Positions 3 to 47,757 of a stretch of 64,000 bases of DNA are shown here, in pieces. The notes beneath the pieces were generated by a model. That model had not been told where the DNA came from. It saw nothing but the letters and a program-made list of their open reading frames with translations, and did no database searches. Both the position numbers and the translations under genes were made by a program. The stretch's first letter is position 1. Each line of letters opens with the position of its first letter. The stretch comes from Candidatus Aenigmarchaeota archaeon LH_S7 (lineage in GTDB: Archaea; Aenigmatarchaeota; Aenigmatarchaeia; QMZS01): the NCBI GenBank assembly GCA_023659895.1, contig JAGXOL010000003.1, positions 1,549 through 65,548 on the forward strand, written 5' to 3'.

Positions 3-3000
3 AATGAATTAGGAACTTATAATATAACAAAAATTTATCTGAATGATACCTCTGGAAATTTGAAAGAAATTGATTTAACAGATTTCTTTGAAATTATTGA
101 ATTAAACCTGAGTTCTTCACTCTCTAATCAATCAATAGAAATAAATAAAACACAAATTTTCTCCGCAAATATATCAGGAAATGCTTCCTCAATTTCTAAA
201 GTGGAAGCAAAAATTTCAAAACCAGATAATTCAACTGAAACTATAGACTTTAATTTTGAAAATAAAACCAATAATATTTATTTTTATACTAAAAATTACC
301 AAAATATAGACTTATCCGGAAATTATTCTGTAAATACAACAGTAATATTAAGCTCAAAAATCAATAAAACAGAGCAGGCGAACTTTAATGTATCTTATGG
401 AAACATTTTAATAAAAGCTGAAAACAGAACTCTTGTAAAGAATACCACTTACGATCTCCCAATATTTATTGTTCCTAACAAGGGTGATTTATTAAATATA
501 TCTGTAAACATATCCATAGAAAATGAAACCATTATAAACTCAACAAATAAAACAAATGATATAGGGGATATTTTATGGAAAGACAATTATCAGGGTAAGG
601 GAGTATTTTTCCCAATTAATTCAACAGCGAATGGAACTACAACGATAAATATAACAGCTTATTCTCCAAATCTGAATGAAAGCAAAAGTATAAATATTAC
701 AGTAATTCGGAAGGACGATACCCCTCCAGAAATAAACAAATTTAACTATTATAATCTTACAAACTTAAATGAAATAAACAAATTTTTAATAAATACCACA
801 GAAAATGAAACAGCAATAAAAAATGTTTCTGTTGAAGTAACATGGCCAAGTAATATTACCAAGAATATCTCTGCAAATTTGAATCCCAACAATTTGTATG
901 AACTAAATTTTAATGGAACAAATGAAAATGGAACTTACGAATTTAAAATTTATTCTTGTAATCTTGCAGATAACTGTGTGGATACAATAGCAGAAGAATT
1001 TAATGTAACAAATGAATATAAAACAGTTATACTTACCTACAATCCTTACAACAAAGGAGATAAAATAAATTTCAATGTATCTGTAAAAGATGTTAGAAAT
1101 TTACCTGTAGAAGGATTTAATCTAACTTTAGTACTTAACAAGGCTGGTGATGATGTTACCCTAGTTAACAATACTATTACAAACTTTGGAAGTTACCGGA
1201 TAGAACCAGAAGATGAGCCTGGAGCTGTCAAAGAAAAGGCTGATTCTACGAATTATACAATTTATGTAAATGTAACGAAAAACCGAAATAGTGGAGAATA
1301 TAATGAGAATTTTGTTGTCTCTGAAGAAATTCCTACAGAAATTATTTACCCGGAAACAGGGTACTATCCTCCAAATACAGGAGTAGATATGAATGTCTCT
1401 GTGGTAGATATGCACAGTGAAGTTGTAGAGGGTGCTGCTGTTACTGCTTATTGTCCAAAGTGCACTAAAGATTATGCAAGATTAACTTTTGATCCAGAAA
1501 CAGGACGTTATAAAGGCAGTTCTATATTTACAGCTCCAGATGAAGACTTTGAAATTTTTATTTATTCAAGTTCTTATTTTGGTGGAAACCTTGGTTATAC
1601 TGGAAGAATGTTTACAACAACTAAAACTACTACAGAACCTTCTGAAGGAGATGGAGGTGGAGGTGGAGGAGGTGTTCCAGGAATAACTAATTGCACCTGT
1701 AAAGAGTGGAAAGATAAAGGCTGTGGTTTATCTAACTGCTCCGCAACAGAGATGTATCAAACAAGAGTATGTAATCCTTCAGGTTGTTTAGCAGAAAAAC
1801 AATGTGTTTATAATCCTATTTGCAAACCAGAAAAAGATTTTAGAATTTCAATTGATCAAGAAATACTAGAAATTGAACAAGGAGAAACAAAAAAATCTTC
1901 CATAAAACTTGAGAATACTGGAGAAAAACTTTTAAAGTTAGGTATTTCTCTAGAGAAAGAATGCTGTGATTTAAATTATACAGAAAGATTAGAACTTAGG
2001 AAAAAAGAAATAAAAACAATGCCGATTTTAATTCATACAAAACTTTCTCAAAAGGTGGGGGATTATTTAGTAAAGTTTAAAGTAAAAAGTGAGGATATAG
2101 AAAAAGAAGAAAATTTGAAAGTAGTGGTTAAAGAAAATCCACTCATTTCTTACTTAAATTCAGTTAAAAAGAAGTTGCCTGAATTAAAAGATGAAGTTAG
2201 TGGATATAGAGAAGCAGGGGTTGATGTTACTGATTTAGAAAGAAGAACACAAGAGATAGAAACTCTTATTAAAGAATCAAATTTGAGTATAAAAACAGAC
2301 AATCTAGATAATTTAGAAAAACAAGTTGATGAAATTAAAACAAAAACTGATTATATAGATAGCAAACTAATAACTTTAAAAATAAGAAAGTTCCTACTTG
2401 AAAACAAATGGAATTTGGTTTTAGCAGCGATTATTATCTTAATATCTTCCTACTTAATAACCCAAGTTACCTACCCATATTTTAGACTCAGTAGGGAAAT
2501 AAAAAATTTAAAAGAGAAAGAGCAGGAAATTACAAACTCCAGAAAAGAAACAGAGAAAAAATATTTTTTAAGGAAGATTGATGAAAAAACATTTAGAGAT
2601 ATCATGGTTAAGACTCAGCAAAAGATTTACGAACTAAGAGGTAAGCTAAAAAGAAAAAAGAAAGCTAAAGCGAATTTCTTAAAAGAAAAATTGCTTCCAA
2701 CTGCCTTATTAAAGTGGGTTATATCTTTGCCAGTTTCTTTTTTTAGATATTCGAAAGGTTTGGTAACAAAATTAAAACATAAATTTGGAAAAATAAAACT
2801 AAAAAATAAAGTTAGAGATATAAAAAGGAAAAAACTTAAAATAAAACAAATTATAAGTGATCCTAAATTTTTTAATAGAGAAGTAACACTCAAGGGTGAA
2901 GTTTCATTTATTCAGAAGACCTCTGAAGGAGACTTTATTTACAAAATAAGAGATGAAACCGGAGATATTTATATTTTCAGTAATAAGAAACTTAAGGAGG

Positions 3001-4659: not shown

Positions 4660-6102
4660 ATGAAGGAAAAATTGAAGAAAATCTCAGATGTAGAATATTT
4701 AATTCCTAAGAGCTCCAGAGAAAAGATGAGAGTTAATGCTAAATTAATTTCCACAGATAAAATTCTGGAAGCTGCTGAGGATGAAGCAATCAAGCAATTG
4801 ACGAATGTGGCATGCTTACCAGGGGTTGTGGAGCCTGTCTACGGCATGCCTGATATTCACTGGGGTTATGGGCTTCCTATGGGGGCTGTAGGAGCTTTTG
4901 ATTCAGAAGAAGGTGTAATCTCAAGTGGTTGTACAGGTTTTGATATTAACTGCGGAATTAGGATGATTAAGACAAATTTGAGTTATGAGGAAGTAAAGCC
5001 AAAATTGAAAGAATTAATAGATGTTTTGTTTAAGCAGGTTCCTTCTGGTGTTGGAGCCAAAGGAAAATTGAAATTGGACAAGGATGAATTGGATGAAGTT
5101 TTAGTCAAGGGAGCAAAATGGGCTGAGGAGAATAATTACGCAACAAAAAAGGACTTGGAAAACATGGAAGAGAATGGGTGCATGGAAGGAGCAGATATAA
5201 ACAAGATTTCAGATACAGCTAAAAAAAGGGGGAGGCCACAATTAGGAACTCTAGGTGCAGGCAATCACTTTCTTGAAGTCCAGAAAGCAGATAATATTTT
5301 TGATGAGAAAACTGGAAAAGCTTTTGGTGTTGATGAGAAAGGTAATGTGATTATAATGTTGCATTGTGGTTCTCGTGGTCTAGGTCACCAGGTTGCATCT
5401 GATTACTTGCAGATTCATAGAAATGCTGTTAAGAAGCACAATATTTGGCTTCCTGATAATCAACTAGTTTGCGCACCTGCAAATTCCCAAGAAGGACAAG
5501 ATTATTATTCAGCTATGAAAGGTGCAGTTAATTATGCTTTTACAAACAGAACAGTGATGACCAGCTGGGTTAGAGAAGGTTTTGAGAAAGTTTTTGGAAG
5601 AAAGTGGGAAGACATGGGAATGGATTTGATTTATGATGTTTGTCACAATATTTGTAAGTTGGAGGAGCATGAAGTTGGAGGAGAAAAGAGAAATTTGTAT
5701 GTGCACAGGAAAGGTGCAACAAGGAGTTTGCCTTCTGGGCATTATCTACTACCTGATTCTTACAAAAATGTTGGACAGCCTGTTTTGATTGCTGGTTCAA
5801 TGGGAACAGCAAGTTATATATTGGTTGGTGGAGAGAAAGCAAAAGGTACTTTCTACTCAAGTGCTCACGGTGCTGGAAGAGTGATGTCAAGGAAGAAAGC
5901 AATAAGAGATTTCAGGGGGAATACAATTAGAGAAGATTTAGCTAAAAGAGGAATTATTGCAAAGTCCACAAGCCCAAAAGTTCTGGCTGAGGAAAGCCCT
6001 GATGCTTATAAGGACATTGATGAGGTTGCAAAAGCTGCAGATATTTCAGGTATATCAAAGAAAGTTGTGAGAGTTGTTCCAATAGGGGTTGTCAAGGGTT
6101 AA
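4660..6102 (+). CDS. rtcB: RNA 3'-phosphate/tRNA-splicing ligase RtcB
   Basis: 480 aa with diagnostic RtcB blocks PDIHWGYGLPMGAV, GFDINCG, GAGNHFLEVQ, HCGSRGLGHQVA, SSAHGAGR. Confidence 0.95.
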   Translation: MKEKLKKISDVEYLIPKSSREKMRVNAKLISTDKILEAAEDEAIKQLTNVACLPGVVEPVYGMPDIHWGYGLPMGAVGAFDSEEGVISSGCTGFDINCGIRMIKTNLSYEEVKPKLKELIDVLFKQVPSGVGAKGKLKLDKDELDEVLVKGAKWAEENNYATKKDLENMEENGCMEGADINKISDTAKKRGRPQLGTLGAGNHFLEVQKADNIFDEKTGKAFGVDEKGNVIIMLHCGSRGLGHQVASDYLQIHRNAVKKHNIWLPDNQLVCAPANSQEGQDYYSAMKGAVNYAFTNRTVMTSWVREGFEKVFGRKWEDMGMDLIYDVCHNICKLEEHEVGGEKRNLYVHRKGATRSLPSGHYLLPDSYKNVGQPVLIAGSMGTASYILVGGEKAKGTFYSSAHGAGRVMSRKKAIRDFRGNTIREDLAKRGIIAKSTSPKVLAEESPDAYKDIDEVAKAADISGISKKVVRVVPIGVVKG

Positions 6103-16550: not shown

Positions 16551-17672
<1,122 letters not shown>

Positions 17673-27775: not shown

Positions 27776-29233
<1,458 letters not shown>

Positions 29234-29273
29234 AAAAAATTAAAAAGAGGTTTTATCCAAAAAATTGCTTAAG

Positions 29274-29438: not shown

Positions 29439-30633
29439 TGAATTTAAATTTCAGTGGACACTGCTCAAAACAGGAGAGCCTTGAATGTGAGTAAATTATA
29501 ATTAATACTAAAAATTTCTATTGGAGAACGAAGTGTAATTGATATTGCCATGATTGTTAGTACTTCCTTCATTTTTAACCTCCTAACTTAATCCTATCCT
29601 TATTATAGAGACCATGGTTCTCAATTCTGATATTACATGTTACTTTATCCCCTCGCCACTCCTCTTTAAATTTTCCAATATAATATTCCTTAGGTTTAAG
29701 AGTAATATCCGTGTTAGCATAACTCAAGTAAACCGTTCCATCTGGTTCTATATTTGTAATTTTCATAAGAAATGGAAGATTTCGTGCATTTGGTAAGGTG
29801 TATATTGGAATTAAGCCCCCTCCACCGCCGCCACCTGGTTCTCCGAGTTCTATTATATTAAGGATTACCATTGATAATTCATTGTTTATTTCAAAATTAC
29901 AGGTTTCACATTCTAAAATTCCGGAATCGTTGTCGAAATGAAGTAGGGGCGGGAAATCTATCATTAATCGACTCCCTGAAATTTCTTGATGGAGACTGAG
30001 AAGGATATAGTCGTCTTGAGGTATTGATCTAGGAAAAACTGCATTTGTGCCATCCCATTCTACAACAACATTAACTTTATCTATATCCTGAATCTCCTCC
30101 AACATCTCACTTCCTGCCTTCATCCCCCACTCATCGCTTCCTTCCACCAACAATATCGCTTTCTCCTCATTCCAGGGATTACTCAAAATCTCCAAAATTC
30201 CTTTATTCTCTCCTGGATATTCCTCAGTTACCCTTGTCGCATCTGTCATATTATATACCTCCTCCAATATCACATTCGATTTTGACGTGCCAACTACAAT
30301 TAAATTATAAGAAGATTTAAAACTTTCAATTTTTTCCGATGATATAACTTCTGGCTTATTACCTATCAGATTTTCCAAATTAGTTGCTATCTCTTCTGCA
30401 CTCTCTTTCTCTATTTGAGAGGCGTTTTCACCAATTACGATTACCGTATTTTCCTTAAAAATCTCAGGAAAATCAGATAGCTTCAGCTCTTCTGCTGGTT
30501 GCGTTGGAGCTTGATGTTCTAAAAGAAAGTAACCAGCGATAATGCAAACCACAATTACTATTCCCAGTATTAAGATTTTCTTCTTCATAATTTATTACCT
30601 CCTCTTTAATTTAAAGTTTTTCGGCCTTTTTAA
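29439..30633. mobile_element. 1195 bp insertion carrying one antisense gene. No transposase and no obvious terminal inverted repeats.
   Basis: It is defined by loss and regain of homology to the intact MITE copy, and is flanked by the 12 bp duplication. Its gene has a strong SD, unlike neighbouring genes. Confidence 0.55.
29575..30588 (-). CDS. Membrane-anchored/secreted protein of unknown function encoded inside the rRNA spacer
   Basis: 337 aa. It has an N-terminal signal/anchor (KKKILILGIVIVVCIIAGYFLL), an internal EPGGGGGGGLIP linker and a CETC pair. AGAGGAGGT lies 8 nt upstream of the ATG (30597-30605). Confidence 0.6.
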   Translation of the reverse strand: MKKKILILGIVIVVCIIAGYFLLEHQAPTQPAEELKLSDFPEIFKENTVIVIGENASQIEKESAEEIATNLENLIGNKPEVISSEKIESFKSSYNLIVVGTSKSNVILEEVYNMTDATRVTEEYPGENKGILEILSNPWNEEKAILLVEGSDEWGMKAGSEMLEEIQDIDKVNVVVEWDGTNAVFPRSIPQDDYILLSLHQEISGSRLMIDFPPLLHFDNDSGILECETCNFEINNELSMVILNIIELGEPGGGGGGGLIPIYTLPNARNLPFLMKITNIEPDGTVYLSYANTDITLKPKEYYIGKFKEEWRGDKVTCNIRIENHGLYNKDRIKLGG

Positions 30634-30893: not shown

Positions 30894-31359
30894 TAGAAAC
30901 ATCTATTTGCTGTTAAGCTATCTAGTGGATGGCTCGGCTTGATATCTGATGAAGGACGTGGCAAGCTGCGATAAGCCCTGGCGAGGTGCATGCTGCCTAA
31001 GAACCAGGGATTTCTTAATTGTTCCTTTTTAGGAACAGGAACGCGGAGAATTGAAACATCTTAGTACCCGCAGGAAAAGAAACCAATTGGAATTCCCTTA
31101 TTAGGGGCGACCGAAAAGGGATGAGAGCAAACCGAACACTTCCTCGTAAGAGAAAGTGAATGTGGTTTTAGGGTGTTCATACTTCCTTTAGAAATTGATT
31201 GAAATTCTCTGGAAAGAGATACCAAAGAGGGTGATAGTCCCGTAAATTGATTTTGAGAGGGAGATTTGAATTGACCCAGAGTATTATCGGTTAGGTTTCC
31301 GGTGAGAACTTGGGAGTCATTAACTTCTAACTCTAAATATAATTCAAGACCGATAGCGA

Positions 31360-31392
<33 letters not shown>

Positions 31393-31961
31393 GTAAAAGG
31401 GAGTAAAAAGAACTTAAAACTAGGTAGTATAGTATCCGTTTCGAATAACGGGGTAAGGAGTATAGGTCTAGGGCTAGACTAATCTTTTGAAGAGAGAAGT
31501 CGTAGCGAAAGCGAGTGCGAAAGTGCGTTAGTCATAGGCCTATTACCCGAAGCCGGACGATCTATTCTCGGACAGGGTGAAGTGTCTCGAAAGAGACATG
31601 GAGGCCCGCACCGTTGCTAGCGTGCTTTCTGCTCGGATGATCTGGGAATAGGGGTGAAAAGCCAATCGAGTTCGGTAATAGCTGGTTCCCTCCAAAATGA
31701 GCCGTAGCTCAGCTTGCCTTTTATAGGTTTATGTGTAAAGTTACTGATTGGGTAGTAGGGGATGAAAGTCTTCGCTACTCAGTCAAACTCTAAAGCGTAA
31801 ACCATTACTGAGGTAGAGTGGGGTTTGCCGGGGAAAGCTCGGTGACCAAAAGGGGAACAACCCTAACCAGCATTAAGGTCCTTAAATAGTGGCTAAGTAC
31901 ACTGAAGGTGTTCTTTCTCTAAAACAATAGGGAAGTAGGCTTAGAAGCAGCCATCCTTTAA

Positions 31962-32003
31962 CCCTTTCCGCTTCGCGCAAAGCGTTAACGGAAAAGGAAA
32001 GAG
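31962..32003 (+). other. 42 nt GC-containing hairpin insertion in 23S, between the conserved GCAGCCATCCTTTAA and AGAAAGCGTAATAGCTCAC
   Basis: The two flanking blocks are contiguous in E. coli and typical archaeal 23S. The insert is self-complementary (CCTTTCC..GCTT CGCGCA AAGC..GGAAAAGG). Confidence 0.6.
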
Positions 32004-33343
32004 AGAAAGCGTAATAGCTCACCTACCTAGAGGAAGTGCGCCGAAGATGGACGGGGTTAAGTCACTTACCGATATGTTGGTTGCCTTTTGGCAATGTAGG
32101 AGGGTGTCTTGGCAGGGCAGAAGTTTCTCTTTAAGGAGAAGTGGACCTGTTAAGAATGAGAATCTTACTGATAGTAACAGCAAAGTGGTGTGAGAATCAC
32201 CATCGCTAGAAGTGGGCAAGGGTTCCCTACCAATTACGATGAGGTAGGGATTAGTCCGTTCCCTAAGAGGATCCCTAACAGAAGTTTTCAAAGGGAAACA
32301 GGTTAACATTCCTGTACCACTAAGTTCTAATCTAACTGGTTAGTTCGGGATAACTTAACGCAAGCTAAGCATTGAAGTCCTTGGAGTCTCGTAATGAGGA
32401 GAAGAGGATGAAGGTGTGTGGCCTTCCTAGAGAAGGTTTAGGTGACTCCTGGATACATTGTAAGCCAGTTAGTAATATTGTTTAGTGACGGTACCCAGAA
32501 CTGACAAGCTATTTCGCACTATGAAGTAAATTAATGCAAAATGCTCAGGAAACAGGTGCCCACGTTGAGTAGGCGAAGGTGTGATAGGATAATCCTGTCT
32601 AGGGAATTCGGCAAATTAGTGGTGTATCTTTGGTAGGAACCATGCCTGTTCTCCTTCGGGAAGGACAGGTCGCAGTTACAAGGAGGGCCCGACTGTTTAA
32701 TTAAAACTTAGCTGACTGCTAGTCCGTAAGGATGTGTATAGTCGGTGAAGCCTGCCCAGTGCGGGTGTGTTAAACCCTTTTTCAAGAGGGTCAAGCCCCC
32801 GTAAACGGCGGCGGTAACCCTGACCGTCTTAAGGTAGCGTAATCCCTTGCCGATTAAACGTCGGCCTGCATGAAGGTCCAACGAGGCCCTCACTGTCCCA
32901 GACAGGAACCTAGTGAACTTTCCTTCTGGTGAAGAGGCCAGAGACTTCCAGTGGGAAGAATAGTCCCTGTGGAGCTTTACTGCAGCCTGCTGTTGTGGTA
33001 ATTTTTGGGGTGTAAAGAGTAGGTAGGAGCTTCGGCGAAAGTGTGACACTACCCTCCCTAAAAATTACTGCTTACTTTTTCGGAAGGACAGCAGTTGGTA
33101 GGCAGTTTGGGTGGGGCGCCACACCCCTAATAAGGTATCAGGGGTGCCCAAAGGTTAGCTCACCGGGGTCAGAAATCCCGGGAAGAGTGTAAACGCAAAA
33201 GCTAGCCTGATTGGATTCCTCCAAGTGCAGAATCCAAGTGCGAAAGCGTGGGTTAACGAAACGCGACCTCGCTTTAATGGCGGCTCGTAACTACAGAAAA
33301 GCTACCCCAGGGGTAATGGAGCTGTGGCCCCCGAGAGTACATA

Positions 33344-33432
33344 GAAGCCTTTTAAAAAAAAAGGCTTCAGCCAAAAAATTAAATCGCCTTCTTTTAAAGG
33401 CTTTTATAATTAATTGTTTTGGTGAGTGCAAA
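33344..33432 (+). other. AT-rich 89 nt insertion in 23S domain V at the helix 89 apical loop (about E. coli 2478/2479); intron or expansion segment
   Basis: CCCCCGAGAGTACATA and TCGACGGGG are contiguous in other 23S sequences. The insert begins with the hairpin GAAGCC-TTTTAAAAAAAAA-GGCTTC and is far more AT-rich than the surrounding rRNA. Confidence 0.65.
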
Positions 33433-33845
33433 TCGACGGGGTGAGTTGCTACTTCGTTGTTGGCTTGCCTCCTCCTGGGTGTGCAGAAGCACCCAAGGGT
33501 ACAGGGGTTTACTGTTTAAAGAGGCACGTTAGCTGAGTTAAGAACGGCGTGAGCCAGTTCGGTCTATATCTGCTGGAAGTGTTCTAGTCTGACAGGAAGA
33601 GAGCTTCAGTACGAAAGGAACAAGTTCTCGTGGCCACTGGTGTACCGGTCGTGATTGCGCTGCCGGGAAGCTAAGCCATCGCGGATAAGAGCTGAAGGCA
33701 TCTAAGCTCGAAGCCGCTCTGAAAAAGAGACTAATTCAGGTGCGGATAGAAGATCCGCTTGATAGAAGAGTGGTGTACGTACCAAGCTTCGGCGAGGTAC
33801 TCAGCCTGCTCTTACTAATTCCTAGACAGCAAATAGATTCTAAAT

Positions 33846-35074: not shown

Positions 35075-35395
35075 TTAACCTAACTCCCGCAGAATATCTT
35101 TGTCTGACTCAAGCACAGGAATTTTTTCTTCCTTTAACTGTCTTACAAGAATCTTGTCAAAAGTCGTGACCTTCAAATTTCTTTTCTTAGCTGCTTCTAT
35201 TAATGAATCATCAGCTTTTTCTTTTTCAGTCTCAATCACCTTAAGCTTTTCAATCAGCGAAAGAAGAACTTTGTCTTTCTTTGCAAGTTCCTTGGCTTCC
35301 TCTATGCAGGGCTTTGTAGTTGCAATCTCTCCAACCCTGAAAAACAATTTTAATTTCTTGTATTCCAAAATCACATTCGTGTCAACCAGAATCAT
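35075..35395 (-). CDS. PIN-domain ribonuclease (small)
   Basis: 106 aa starting MILVDTNVILEY (PIN Asp), with later acidic residues (IEEAKE, TTFDKIL). It overlaps the RNase Z stop by 4 bp. Confidence 0.6.
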   Translation of the reverse strand: MILVDTNVILEYKKLKLFFRVGEIATTKPCIEEAKELAKKDKVLLSLIEKLKVIETEKEKADDSLIEAAKKRNLKVTTFDKILVRQLKEEKIPVLESDKDILRELG

Positions 35396-36270
35396 ACTTT
35401 CACTCTTTTCAAGTCCTTGGCAAGCACAACATTCTTGTAATCTTTAATCTTTTTCTCCAGCTCTTTCTGACTCGTGTACTTCCTGCTGATATGAGTCAAG
35501 TAAACTTTCTTCGCAAATTTTCTCAAGTTTAAAACATCCTCCAAAGTTGAGTGGTACTTGTCTTTTAAATCATCCCTGCTGAAGTATGTGCATTCATGTA
35601 TTAACACACTGTCTTTAGCAAATTTTTCCATTTTCTTCAGGTATTGGGTGTCCCCTGAATAAACCACCTTCTTTCCTGGGACTGTGTAGGAAACATCCCT
35701 TAAATTTATTGTTTTTCCATCTTTTTTGATTTTTCCCTTGTCTTTTATTTCGCGGCAATCCTTCCAGTTCAATTTTAGTTTCTTGATTTTCTTCTTATCT
35801 AATTTTAATTTTTCCCTTTCCTGAAAACGATAAGCAAAATTTTCCGTGGTGTGTTTCCCTTTCATTGCCTCCACTGAAAATTCATCCCCATCAAATACTG
35901 TTCCCTCTAAACAATCAACAAACTTTGTTTTGAAAGGTAGATGGAAGAACTTCAAGAGTTCAGGACCGATTTTCTTAGCTTTTGGTGCAACTATGGTTAT
36001 TTCTTTCTTGCGGCCCTCAAAAGCCATTGAAGTTAATAAACCAAAAAGGCCAATCCAGTGGTCAGCATGCCAATGAGATATAAAAATGTAATCAATTGAC
36101 ATGAAATTTATCCTAGCTTTTTGTAGTTGAGTTTGTGTTCCTTCTCCACAATCAAAAAGTATTGAGTAATCATTCCTTGAGTGGTATCTTAAATGTACAG
36201 CAGGATGTCTCCTTTTTATTGTTGGGATTGTTGTCCCTGTACCCAGGAAAGTGATTTCAACAGATCTCAT
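35392..36270 (-). CDS. rnz: Ribonuclease Z (tRNA 3' endonuclease, metallo-beta-lactamase fold)
   Basis: 292 aa with ITFLGTGTTIPT, the ISHWHADHWIG (HxHxDH) motif and a C-terminal LTHISRKY. Confidence 0.85.
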   Translation of the reverse strand: MRSVEITFLGTGTTIPTIKRRHPAVHLRYHSRNDYSILFDCGEGTQTQLQKARINFMSIDYIFISHWHADHWIGLFGLLTSMAFEGRKKEITIVAPKAKKIGPELLKFFHLPFKTKFVDCLEGTVFDGDEFSVEAMKGKHTTENFAYRFQEREKLKLDKKKIKKLKLNWKDCREIKDKGKIKKDGKTINLRDVSYTVPGKKVVYSGDTQYLKKMEKFAKDSVLIHECTYFSRDDLKDKYHSTLEDVLNLRKFAKKVYLTHISRKYTSQKELEKKIKDYKNVVLAKDLKRVKV

Positions 36271-41825: not shown

Positions 41826-41917
41826 TTTCTTTTTTTCCTTTTTTAACTCTTTTTATTTAATAGTTAAACTTTAATCAAAAATAATATTTTATGCGGGGGT
41901 AGCCAAGTCTGGTCAAA

Positions 41918-41936
41918 AGAAAGGATTCCAGAAAAA
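41918..41936 (+). other. Candidate D-loop intron (~19 nt; boundaries ambiguous within A-runs)
   Basis: 32 nt lie between the D-stem halves GCC and GGC, versus about 13 expected. UCUGG (41908-12) is complementary to CCAGA (41928-32). Confidence 0.45.
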
Positions 41937-41951
41937 GGCGCGAGACTCAAG

Positions 41952-42035
41952 GGAACTTTTAAAAAAAGTTCCATCAAAAAAAGAAGGGAACCTTTTAGAA
42001 ACAAAGCAAGATAACTACGAAAATATTGGTGGGAA
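41952..42035 (+). other. Canonical-position (37/38) tRNA intron, 84 nt
   Basis: It follows CUCAAG. UGGG just before the 3' junction can pair with loop CUCA (a 4 bp central helix) next to an AAA bulge, which is BHB-like. Confidence 0.7.
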
Positions 42036-42068
42036 ATCTCGTCCCTCAGTGGGTTCGGCGGTTCAAAT

Positions 42069-42283
42069 GGAACTTTTAGAAAAAGTTCCATCAAAACAAG
42101 CTTTTAAAAAAAGCTTGAGCAAAAAATGGAACTTTTAAAAAAAGTTCCATCAAAAAAAGAAGGGAACTTTTAGAAACCTCGAAAAACTTTGTTTTCGGAC
42201 CCCATAAACCCAAGGTTTATGAGGAAGGTTTTATCCAAAAAAGAAAAAAAGGTCTTCACCCCAAAGAAAAACGATACGGAAAT
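42069..42283 (+). other. T-loop/T-stem intron, ~215 nt (junction can slide up to 4 nt because AAAT occurs at both boundaries)
   Basis: GGCGGTTCAAAT is separated from its partner CCGCC plus the 3' acceptor CCCCCGCA by 215 nt. It starts with the same hairpin as the 37/38 intron. Confidence 0.6.
42097..42198 (+). repeat. Copy 1 of a ~102 bp hairpin-rich module (inside the T-arm intron)
   Basis: CAAGCTTTTAAAAAAAGCTTGAGCAAAAAATGGAACTTTTAAAAAAAGTTCCATCAAAAAAAGAAGGGAACTTTTAGAAACCTCGAAAAACTTTGTTTTCGG. It is more than 90% identical to 42297-42398, exactly 200 bp downstream. Confidence 0.85.
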
Positions 42284-42296
42284 CCGCCCCCCCGCA

Positions 42297-42398
42297 CAAG
42301 CTTTTAAAAAAAGCTTGAGCAAAAAAGGAATTTTTAGAAAAAGTTCCATCAAAAAAAGAAGAGAACTTTTAGAAACCTCGAAAAACTTTGTTTTTCGT
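42297..42398 (+). repeat. Copy 2 of the ~102 bp hairpin-rich module (starts at the first base after the tRNA discriminator)
   Basis: See 42097-42198. It contains the palindromes AAGCTTTTAAAAAAAGCTT, GGAATTTTTAGAAAAAGTTCC and CGAAAAACTTTGTTTTTCG. Confidence 0.85.
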
Positions 42399-42425
42399 GC
42401 CCTTATAAATATTGATTGATATGTT

Positions 42426-47085: not shown

Positions 47086-47757
47086 ATGTGCGCAAAGAAA
47101 AAAGAAGCAGAGGTTGAAGAATCAAAGGAAACCACCAAAAAACAAAAAAAAGCAGAGAATGAAAAAGCTGTAAAAACTAAAAAAACAGAAGGAGAAGGGA
47201 AGAAAAAGGAAAAGAGAAAAACTTACAAAGGTGATGTGCAGGAAAACAAGGTGATTGTTTGGGGTATAGAGGATGCGAACGAGATTTATGATTTGGGTTG
47301 CTTCGGAAAAATCAAGGATGATGATAGGAATGAATTATCCTTAGAAGAAGCTATGTTATTGGTTAATAGAAACAGGTTAAATGTTAGAAAGAATGGAAGA
47401 AAAATAAGCAAGAAAAAGTTCTATGAATATGCTTGCTCAATGGATGATGAATTCCCTTGGAAATATCGTGTTTATGAGGATTTAAGAAATAGAGGTCTTC
47501 TTGCAAAGACAGGCTTTAAATTTGGTACTCACTTCAGAGTTTATGGTCGCGGAGTTAGATTAACCAAAGGACATAAAAATAGAAAAGAGCACACAAAATG
47601 GATTGTCCATGCAGTTCCTGAAACTTTCACTTGTTCATTACCTGAATTAGCTAGGGCAGTAAGGTTGGCCCACAACATCAGGGCAAAAATGCTTTGGGCT
47701 GTGGTTGACAAGGAAGGGGATGTGACTTATTATGAGATTGTTAGAAAAACACCTTGA
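47086..47757 (+). CDS. endA: tRNA-splicing endonuclease EndA with a Lys-rich N-terminal extension
   Basis: The C-terminal catalytic domain is YEDLRNRGLLAKTGFKFGTHFRVYGRG..HTKWIVHAV..AVRLAHNIRAKMLWAVVD (Tyr/His/Lys triad context). The first ~45 aa are KKKEAEVEESKETTKKQKKAENEKAVKTKKTEGEGKKKEKRK. Confidence 0.85.
   Translation: MCAKKKEAEVEESKETTKKQKKAENEKAVKTKKTEGEGKKKEKRKTYKGDVQENKVIVWGIEDANEIYDLGCFGKIKDDDRNELSLEEAMLLVNRNRLNVRKNGRKISKKKFYEYACSMDDEFPWKYRVYEDLRNRGLLAKTGFKFGTHFRVYGRGVRLTKGHKNRKEHTKWIVHAVPETFTCSLPELARAVRLAHNIRAKMLWAVVDKEGDVTYYEIVRKTP

Follow-up and report, generated by a model that had tools for sequence, protein, structure and literature searches.

Can four short pieces of sequence, spread over 404 nucleotides (nt), make up one working tRNA gene, and where do the segments between them come from? 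The question is raised by positions 41893-42296 of the window, meaning the whole 64,000-nt stretch analysed from contig JAGXOL010000003.1 of Candidatus Aenigmarchaeota archaeon LH_S7 (positions 1,549 to 65,548, forward strand; assembly GCA_023659895.1). Coordinates are window positions on the forward (+) strand unless stated otherwise. The locus is very probably a functional, and probably single-copy, tRNA-Leu(CAA) gene with three introns from the Aenigmarchaeota (DPANN), a reading that draws on sequence comparison.

The preliminary description had joined 41893-41917, 41937-41951, 42036-42068 and 42284-42296 into a canonical 86-nt class II tRNA-Leu(CAA) with a fully paired acceptor stem, and this holds. 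Once the three intervening segments are removed, the 86-nt mature sequence has 64% GC, against 33.7% GC for the window, and is called as tRNA-Leu(CAA) by ARAGORN, with a paired acceptor stem of 7 base pairs (bp) and a class II variable arm. The spliced tRNA has the T-loop TTCAAAT and the discriminator A73; CCA is not encoded. With the splice sites preferred below, exon 1 (41893-41914, 22 nt) provides the 5' strands of the acceptor and D-stems and the D-loop to C20a. Exon 2 (41934-41951) provides the end of the D-loop, the 3' strand of the D-stem, the 5' strand of the anticodon stem and the loop to G37, with the anticodon CAA. Exon 3 (42036-42067) runs from A38 through the 3' strand of the anticodon stem, the variable arm and the 5' strand of the T-stem to A59 in the T-loop, and exon 4 (42283-42296) holds U60, the 3' strands of the T-stem and acceptor stem, and A73. 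The four exons are colinear and in 5'-to-3' order. They are preceded by a presumed promoter or leader, ATCAAAAATAATATTTTAT (41874-41892), and the same 19 nt precede the ortholog of the closest relative, L123.

All the tRNA stems (acceptor, D, anticodon, variable and T) are present in the unconstrained minimum free energy (MFE) fold of the 404-nt precursor (-118.6 kcal/mol, z = -5.68), and 0 of 100 dinucleotide shuffles reach an equal folding energy. The introns form separate hairpins in this structure, and the exon-intron pairings arise in cis. The earlier remark that chance is unlikely to produce such an arrangement is borne out by this fold and by its repetition in six further distinct orthologs.

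The gene escapes the usual searches. ARAGORN with its intron option, proposed earlier as a check, does not call the unspliced gene, and on the unspliced window it returns no tRNA with or without that option (introns up to 400 nt). The ARAGORN intron model is limited to the anticodon loop. Rfam, run over the whole window at the gathering threshold and at E<=1, gives rRNAs only (archaeal small subunit rRNA at 27776-29235 and large subunit rRNA at 30901-33838) and misses the tRNA gene. A scan of the window for T-arms and GC islands finds no second tRNA-like sequence, and the claim that this is the only one in the window therefore stands, with ARAGORN and Rfam likewise revealing no other.

Ortholog contigs were gathered via two neighbouring proteins, the splicing endonuclease EndA, encoded 5 kb from the tRNA, and a CBS-domain protein, encoded about 270 nt upstream of it. 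Six further distinct orthologs were found, making seven syntenic genes in all. They have the same neighbours, encoding a 58-residue protein and the CBS-domain protein, and the Cys-rich gene downstream is also kept wherever the contig reaches that far. A metagenome contig scan anchored on the CBS protein gave only relatives at <=31% identity, an exact look-up of the 58-residue protein gave no match, and the CBS relatives L149-L152 have lost synteny and are uninformative. Exon 1 is identical or nearly so in the six further orthologs, and every one of them yields a canonical cloverleaf, an 86-nt tRNA-Leu(CAA), when its intervening sequences are removed.

Covariation was tested on six distinct spliced sequences with 23 stem pairs, and a four-sequence version was also run. 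All 138 stem cells are paired (138/138), 10 of the 23 pairs show double changes, and no pair is one-sided or broken. None of 500 shuffles reaches any of the five covariation measures, and sliding the 3' partners by 1-3 columns lowers pairing to 35-54%. The covarying pairs bridge each intron: intron 1 is spanned by G10:C25 <-> C10:G25, intron 2 by three anticodon-stem pairs and intron 3 by two T-stem pairs, and the acceptor pair 3:70 encloses all three. The cloverleaf is kept by compensatory evolution, and changes of this kind across the introns indicate that the exons are under selection as one RNA.

A dead gene, that is, an ordinary tRNA-Leu(CAA) gene broken by insertions of hairpins resembling miniature inverted-repeat transposable elements (MITEs) and no longer in use, could account for the repeated palindromic modules in the intervening sequences and for the failure of standard tRNA finders to call the locus. 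Its exons, however, are intact, and the stem substitutions in the six distinct spliced orthologs are all compensatory, across every intron. The interruption sites and splice registers are kept between genomes whose CBS proteins are only 52-75% identical, and the modules, unlike a dispersed MITE, are absent from the rest of the window and from about 139 kb of related DNA. With 138/138 stem cells paired and kept registers, a pseudogene is therefore strongly disfavoured, to the point of being barely credible.

Where does each intron begin and end? Archaeal splice sites take the form of a motif called bulge-helix-bulge (BHB), and at two of the junctions here they are ambiguous by 3-4 nt because of A-rich repeats. 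Every splice-site pair yielding the identical mature sequence was scored under a geometry taken from the canonical 37/38 site: a central helix of 4 bp lies 5' of each 3-nt bulge, and the cut follows the second bulge nucleotide. For each intron a single register then shows 3-nt bulges and 3-4 bp in the central helix. In the motifs given here, brackets enclose the bulge and a bar marks the cut. Intron 1 (41915-41933, 19 nt) lies in the D-loop at about 20a/20b and has the motif CTGG[TC|A]...CCAG[AA|A]; this is the only one of four registers with a 4/4 central helix, and both register and helix are also found in L147 and L155. In L146 the D-loop register lies 2 nt downstream, with GGTC[AA|A]...GATC[CT|A] and an inner helix of 6 bp. 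Intron 2 (41952-42035, 84 nt) occupies the canonical 37/38 position with CTCA[AG|G]...TGGG[AA|A], a 4/4 central helix, an outer helix of 6 bp made of the anticodon stem plus one pair, and a hairpin, module A, at the intron start. Intron 3 (42068-42282, 215 nt) interrupts the T-loop at 59/60 with TTCA[AA|T]...CGGA[AA|T]; its outer helix is the 5-bp T-stem, its central helix is 3/4, and its register is common to five other orthologs with introns of 15-119 nt.

These registers replace the 41918-41936 and 42069-42283 of the preliminary description and leave the mature product unchanged. The pairing of CUCA with UGGG beside an AA|A bulge at 37/38, seen earlier, is confirmed by the register scoring. 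The third intron was rightly placed in the T-arm, but its site lies inside the T-loop at 59/60 and not at the border of T-loop and T-stem. Failure of the junctions to form any BHB-like structure had been named beforehand as a point that would count against the gene; every junction forms one, in one register.

Conservation of the motifs goes beyond the register. When intron sequences are shuffled, the central helix gives P = 0.028 for intron 1, 0.009 for intron 2 and 0.31 for intron 3, and P lies between 0.009 and 0.045 for five of the eight introns tested in all, where values among orthologous introns are not independent. The 3' bulge reads AA|N in 10 of 12 introns in the window and its orthologs. 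At the 59/60 site, T54, T55 and C56 face intron nucleotides that pair with them in 6/6 genes (A/G, A/G and G, respectively), and A57 does so in 2/6; five genes have AA|T as the 3' bulge and one has AT|T, giving the consensus 3' splice site G-R-R-[AA|U]. The intron-side helix of the 5' bulge is a local hairpin starting at intron nucleotide 1-2 and does not pair with the intron 3' end. All three introns have relaxed BHB boundaries, in which one flanking helix is weak or a local hairpin stands in its place. The functional three-intron reading is upheld by the covariation across every intron and the kept registers; what has to be given up is the strictness of the motifs, which are relaxed BHBs.

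The AT-rich palindrome with which each long intron starts resembles an archaeal TATA element, and split tRNAs do occur in DPANN archaea (PMC4390854, PMC5829648). The pieces could accordingly be transcribed separately, with the TTTTAAAAAAA cores as TATA boxes, and joined in trans as in Nanoarchaeum or Caldivirga. Such a locally split gene is highly unlikely, since the exons are colinear, ordered and contained in 404 nt, neither split nor permuted, and the ortholog introns of 15-33 nt at the same sites leave no room for a promoter. The MFE fold also pairs exon and intron in cis, and complementary GC-rich leaders like those of Nanoarchaeum are missing from the locus.

For a contiguous three-intron gene, processing enzymes would be needed, and the preliminary description had placed RtcB, EndA and RNase Z in the same window. 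Profile matches agree for all three. EndA, the tRNA-intron lyase (47086-47757, 223 residues), is a single alpha-type unit that matches PF01974, PF02778 and TIGR00324, the last at 88.4 bits, above the cut-off of 59.6. The RtcB RNA ligase (4660-6102) matches PF01139 over its full length (E = 2.4e-169), and both a splicing endonuclease and an RtcB-type ligase are thus encoded. RNase Z (35392-36270, minus strand), with a metallo-beta-lactamase fold, matches TIGR02651 over its full length (E = 3.6e-75), its score of 252.8 bits lying under the curated cut-off of 292.95.

The closest solved structure to the window EndA is the alpha4 enzyme of M. jannaschii (1a79). The window protein has an insertion, RLTKGHKNRK, beside the catalytic His, with 6 residues between the catalytic Tyr and His that are absent from 1a79. 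The alignment of this stretch with the N. equitans alpha subunit (3iey, PKKGKRSER) and the ARMAN-2 enzyme (4fz2) is gap-free, and the insertion is a positively charged loop of the Nanoarchaeum/ARMAN-2 type. In N. equitans EndA, residues 90-98 form a positively charged loop next to the catalytic His (Hirata et al., PMC3488258), and the loop, renamed L3, has been associated with increased tRNA gene disruption in DPANN (Kaneta et al., PMC5829648). The substrates in the seven orthologs, and these only, would point to a broad specificity of the window EndA for relaxed, non-canonical sites.

The nearest named homologs of this EndA are all from Candidatus Aenigmarchaeota/Aenigmatarchaeota. The very same protein is encoded in Logan run SRR14170872 and on an NCBI contig of 69,545 bp. 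Residues 1-45 (47086-47220) form an N-terminal extension of about 45 residues found only in the closest relatives P0002, P0003 and P0011 (100% query coverage), and most Aenigmarchaeota homologs have 177-200 residues and cover 76-83% of the query. On one contig with an EndA relative at 87% identity (L124, 1-9990), the pair of M54 peptidase and EndA has genes of bacterial type ahead of it (NAD-dependent DNA ligase, FtsW, 5'-3' exonuclease, pseudopilins and prepilin peptidase) as well as 1.6 kb without called genes; the contig could be chimeric, or the block transferred.

From the sequence and knowledge of the pathway, we infer the following order of events. The gene would be transcribed as a single precursor of about 400-500 nt, and EndA would cut at the 3-nt bulges of the three relaxed BHB motifs, at about 20a/20b in the D-loop, at 37/38 and at 59/60. 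RtcB would then ligate the four exons, RNase P would trim the 5' end and RNase Z the 3' end with its trailer of about 100 nt, and CCA would be added after trimming because none is encoded.

Several observations weigh against this reading of the locus. Intron 1 is flanked by very short helices, of 1 and 2 bp. In intron 3 the central helix reaches just 3/4 bp and is not significant alone (P = 0.31), and the MFE fold favours a neighbouring register for this intron with a 2-nt bulge. The contribution of the positively charged EndA loop to specificity has not been demonstrated for ARMAN-2 (PMC3488258). The region is also rich in repeats and comes from a short-read metagenome-assembled genome (MAG), and a Logan assembly made from the same sequencing run ends within the region.

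How stable is the intron content of the gene? Five different intron complements are found among the seven orthologs, and only the window gene has all three introns (D-loop 19 nt, 37/38 84 nt, 59/60 215 nt). L123 lacks the D-loop intron and has introns of 69 nt at 37/38 and 115 nt at 59/60. L155 (D-loop 27 nt, 59/60 119 nt) and L147 (= L148; D-loop 31 nt, 59/60 54 nt) have none at 37/38. Only a 59/60 intron is present in L153 (= L154; 15 nt) and L156 (23 nt), and only a D-loop intron of 33 nt in L146. The 59/60 intron is therefore near-universal, at 15-215 nt, and the 37/38 intron is restricted to the window and L123. A neighbour-joining tree of the adjacent CBS protein, which represents one protein only, has the topology ((window, L123), (L146, (L155, (L153, (L147, L156))))). 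CBS identity is 75% for the window and L123 and 51-55% from one clade to the other. The simplest reading of the tree makes the 59/60 intron ancestral and lost once, in L146. The 37/38 intron would require one event, either a gain in the lineage of the window and L123 or a loss in the other clade, and the patchy D-loop intron would require several gains or losses. The introns are evolutionarily labile and, to judge from these genes, are gained, lost and rebuilt quickly. Seven orthologs with five intron complements at one syntenic site amount to a natural time series of intron change.

The origin of the longest intron can be followed in its sequence. Palindromes built as stem-TTTTA(A/G)AAAAA-stem recur in the introns of the window gene. 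Module A, with the stem GGAAC, occurs at 41952, 42069, 42128 and 42327, and module B (stem CAAGC) at 42097 and 42297, the second copy directly after A73. Module A with its tail (GGAACTTTTAAAAAAAGTTCC ATCAAAAAAAGAAGGGAACCTTTTAGAAAC) opens intron 2 (41952-42002); the first 51 nt of this intron are identical to 42128-42177 in intron 3 at 50/50 positions with one gap, and module A with its tail matches the 3' flank at 42327-42376 in 47/50. Intron 3 has hairpin A' (ATGGAACTTTTAGAAAAAGTTCCAT, 42067-42091) at its first nucleotides, and further in a 112-nt block of hairpin B, hairpin A and tail (42097-42208). The block is a paralog of the 3' trailer and flank (42297-42409), which begins with hairpin B, followed by hairpin A'' and a tail that contains T5 runs, and extends to the TATA-like TTATAAA of the downstream gene. 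Block and flank are identical at 105/111 positions (95%, with 6 differences and 3 gap columns), and their alignment score is 177 vs a shuffled maximum of 33. The similarity extends to the TATA-like TTATAAA, suggesting that the flank was copied into the intron.

Intron 3 thus reaches 215 nt because 112 nt of it duplicate the 3' flank of the same gene, and without the block it would have about 100 nt, comparable to the 115 nt of L123 and the 119 nt of L155. Its size had been described as very large for the T-arm, as indeed it is when judged against the 13-nt 59/60 intron of ARMAN-2 and the 15-119 nt of the orthologs, and the copied flank explains it. Growth of an intron by copying of a 3' flank is direct sequence evidence for the enlargement and exchange of introns at the DNA level, which is relevant to the unsettled origin of non-canonical tRNA introns (PMC4090602, PMC4390854).

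The gene could be real and the length of intron 3 still an assembly artefact, with 42097-42208 a mis-threaded strain variant of the 3' flank and a true intron of about 100 nt. Identity of 95% between block and flank, exact repeats of 40-50 nt in the region and the end of the Logan assembly of the run (SRR14170872) at window position 42368, within the repeat, would all be expected in that case. The Logan contig, found via the downstream Cys-rich protein, ends 58 nt before the downstream gene, inside a repeated module. However, the two block junctions (ATCAAAA|CAAGC and ...CATAAAC|CCAAGG) are unique and presumably must exist in the reads for a de Bruijn assembler to output them, the two copies differ at 6 positions and 3 gap columns, and L123 and L155 independently carry 59/60 introns of 115 and 119 nt, the latter with internal repeats. 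An artefact is therefore judged unlikely, and growth of the intron by duplication is preferred. Short-read assemblies that break at such loci may be a reason why these genes are under-reported.

Exchange of modules is not limited to intron 3. Intron 2 of L123 opens with a module-B hairpin that is identical to the window flank copy at 31/32 positions, and over its whole length it matches intron 2 of the window at 45/54. The modules have therefore moved or been homogenised among intron 2, intron 3 and the flank since the two genomes diverged. The core occurs with a flanking stem seven times in about 139 kb of Aenigmarchaeota DNA, each time in this tRNA locus (7/7) and in sense orientation: six copies are in the window and one is at the start of the 59/60 intron of L155, where the stem is AAACCC/GGGTTT. 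The other 18 occurrences of the core in the window have no flanking stem. No copy of modules A and B was found elsewhere in the window or in the other related loci fetched, and a viral contig scan for module A gave no match.

Four long introns, from three genomes, have a module starting exactly at nucleotide 1-2, and the module stems covary while the core is kept. Our best guess is that each relaxed motif draws its inner helix from the module copy beside the 5' splice site, the remaining copies having arisen incidentally through duplication. It is also conceivable, if rather doubtful, that the modules, with a variable stem of 5-7 bp and the conserved core TTT(T)AAAAAAA, are the active unit of a small propagating element specific to tRNA introns in Aenigmarchaeota. 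If so, a hairpin cassette landing beside a sequence capable of a 4-bp helix would create a spliceable BHB intron, and the module would be the long-sought DNA-level vehicle for the gain and growth of non-canonical introns.

Other candidate features of the introns were considered. The module copies in the 3' flank have T5 runs (42331-42335 and 42391-42395; GGAATTTTTAG, TTTGTTTTTCG), and those in the introns have T4 (42132-42135 and 42191-42194). Selection against T5 inside introns, acting through termination or read-through, was dismissed as weak, because the D-loop intron of L147 contains T6. Self-splicing group I or II introns were rejected, with no Rfam family except rRNA at E<=1 across the window and introns of 19-215 nt. 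Inspection by eye of the introns for a C/D-box small RNA (RUGAUGA/CUGA) gave no convincing box pair.

Elsewhere in the window, a 337-residue open reading frame (29575-30588, minus strand) lies on the opposite strand in the 1.67-kb spacer between 16S and 23S rRNA and has no Pfam or NCBIfam match. No tRNA-Ala was detected in this spacer by ARAGORN or by the scan for T-arms and GC islands. A pyridoxal phosphate enzyme of the SepSecS/SepCysS family (16560-17672, PF05889, E = 2.8e-48) is encoded in this small DPANN genome.

Gaps in the tRNA sets of DPANN and Asgard genomes are a sign of disrupted genes that have escaped detection (Kaneta et al., PMC5829648), and tRNAscan-SE 2.0 takes its BHB models from training on Cren-, Eury- and Thaumarchaeota (PMC8450103). 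For annotation, the locus and its six orthologs offer a curated DPANN training case with three intron positions. For enzymology, the same set defines natural relaxed candidate substrates for an alpha-type EndA with a Nanoarchaeum-type loop. A search of the accessible literature found no paper on tRNA introns in Aenigmarchaeota.

How does the gene compare with known systems? A contig scan with the exon 1 pattern (two degenerate positions) returned at least 120 archaeal tRNA-Leu loci, with none from close relatives among the matches listed. One of them, a tRNA-Leu(TAA) gene from an uncultured archaeon (L059; ERP108616_co1_335, GTDB MAG, 31% GC; 2673-2848, minus strand), is likewise split by three introns: 26 nt in the D-loop, 17 nt in the anticodon stem and 47 nt at 37/38. 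A central helix of 4 bp forms at each, and ARAGORN does not call this gene either. Its exon 1 is identical to that of the window, and its D-loop intron shares the GGTC/GATC helix with the ortholog L146. It differs in its isoacceptor, lacks a T-loop intron and hairpin modules, and has strong and strict BHB motifs throughout. Among the matches listed, a D-loop interruption right after GGTCAAA recurs in tRNA-Leu genes of unrelated phyla: Nitrososphaerales (L015, L051, L112), Methanocellales-like archaea (L025, L028, L041, L048, L084), Caldarchaeum and other Nitrososphaerota (L020, L026, L045, L073, L080, L083) and an Asgard MAG (L060). This suggests that the position is a recurrent insertion hot spot.

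In host and in T-loop site, the gene resembles those of ARMAN-2 (Ca. Micrarchaeum), another DPANN archaeon. Its pre-tRNA-Cys(GCA) has a 13-nt intron at 59/60 with a relaxed motif, cleaved in vitro by the ARMAN-2 EndA, and its tRNA-Pro(GGG) has two T-loop introns (PMC3239211). The relaxed hBH/BHL-like motif with the T-stem as outer helix is shared. In contrast, the ARMAN-2 enzyme is a three-unit epsilon2 protein that owes its specificity to the ASL/L2 loop, whereas the window enzyme is a single alpha unit, and the 59/60 intron has 215 nt in the window and 15-119 nt in its orthologs, against 13 nt in ARMAN-2. One eukaryotic tRNA gene likewise has an intron in each of three arms, but with a different endonuclease complex and an independent origin.

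Archaeal tRNA genes have one to a maximum of three introns (PMC3239211, PMC8450103), and three are known in Pyrobaculum calidifontis tRNA-Glu(UUC) and P. islandicum tRNA-Pro(UGG) (PMC4390854, PMC8450103). The preliminary description had drawn the parallel with the multi-intron genes of Thermoproteales. The likeness in having three introns stands; theirs are removed by EndA and the halves then ligated. The host, by its EndA homologs, belongs to the Aenigmarchaeota (DPANN) and not to the Thermoproteales. It is AT-rich and has an alpha-type EndA with a Nanoarchaeum-type loop in place of the crenarchaeal CSL/L1 loop, and its introns are far more A-rich, one of them being 215 nt long and built of duplicated hairpin modules. 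In Thermoproteales, similar intron sequences at different positions have been read as transposition of introns between tRNA genes (Fujishima et al. 2010, as summarised in PMC4090602 and PMC4033280). The window gene too has similar sequences in introns at different positions, implying movement or copying at the DNA level, but here the copies lie in introns 2 and 3 of one gene and in its own 3' flank, which points to local duplication or gene conversion and not to genome-wide transposition. The gene is of an already known kind, at the documented maximum of intron number, with a T-loop intron that is unusually long and whose origin can be read from its sequence.

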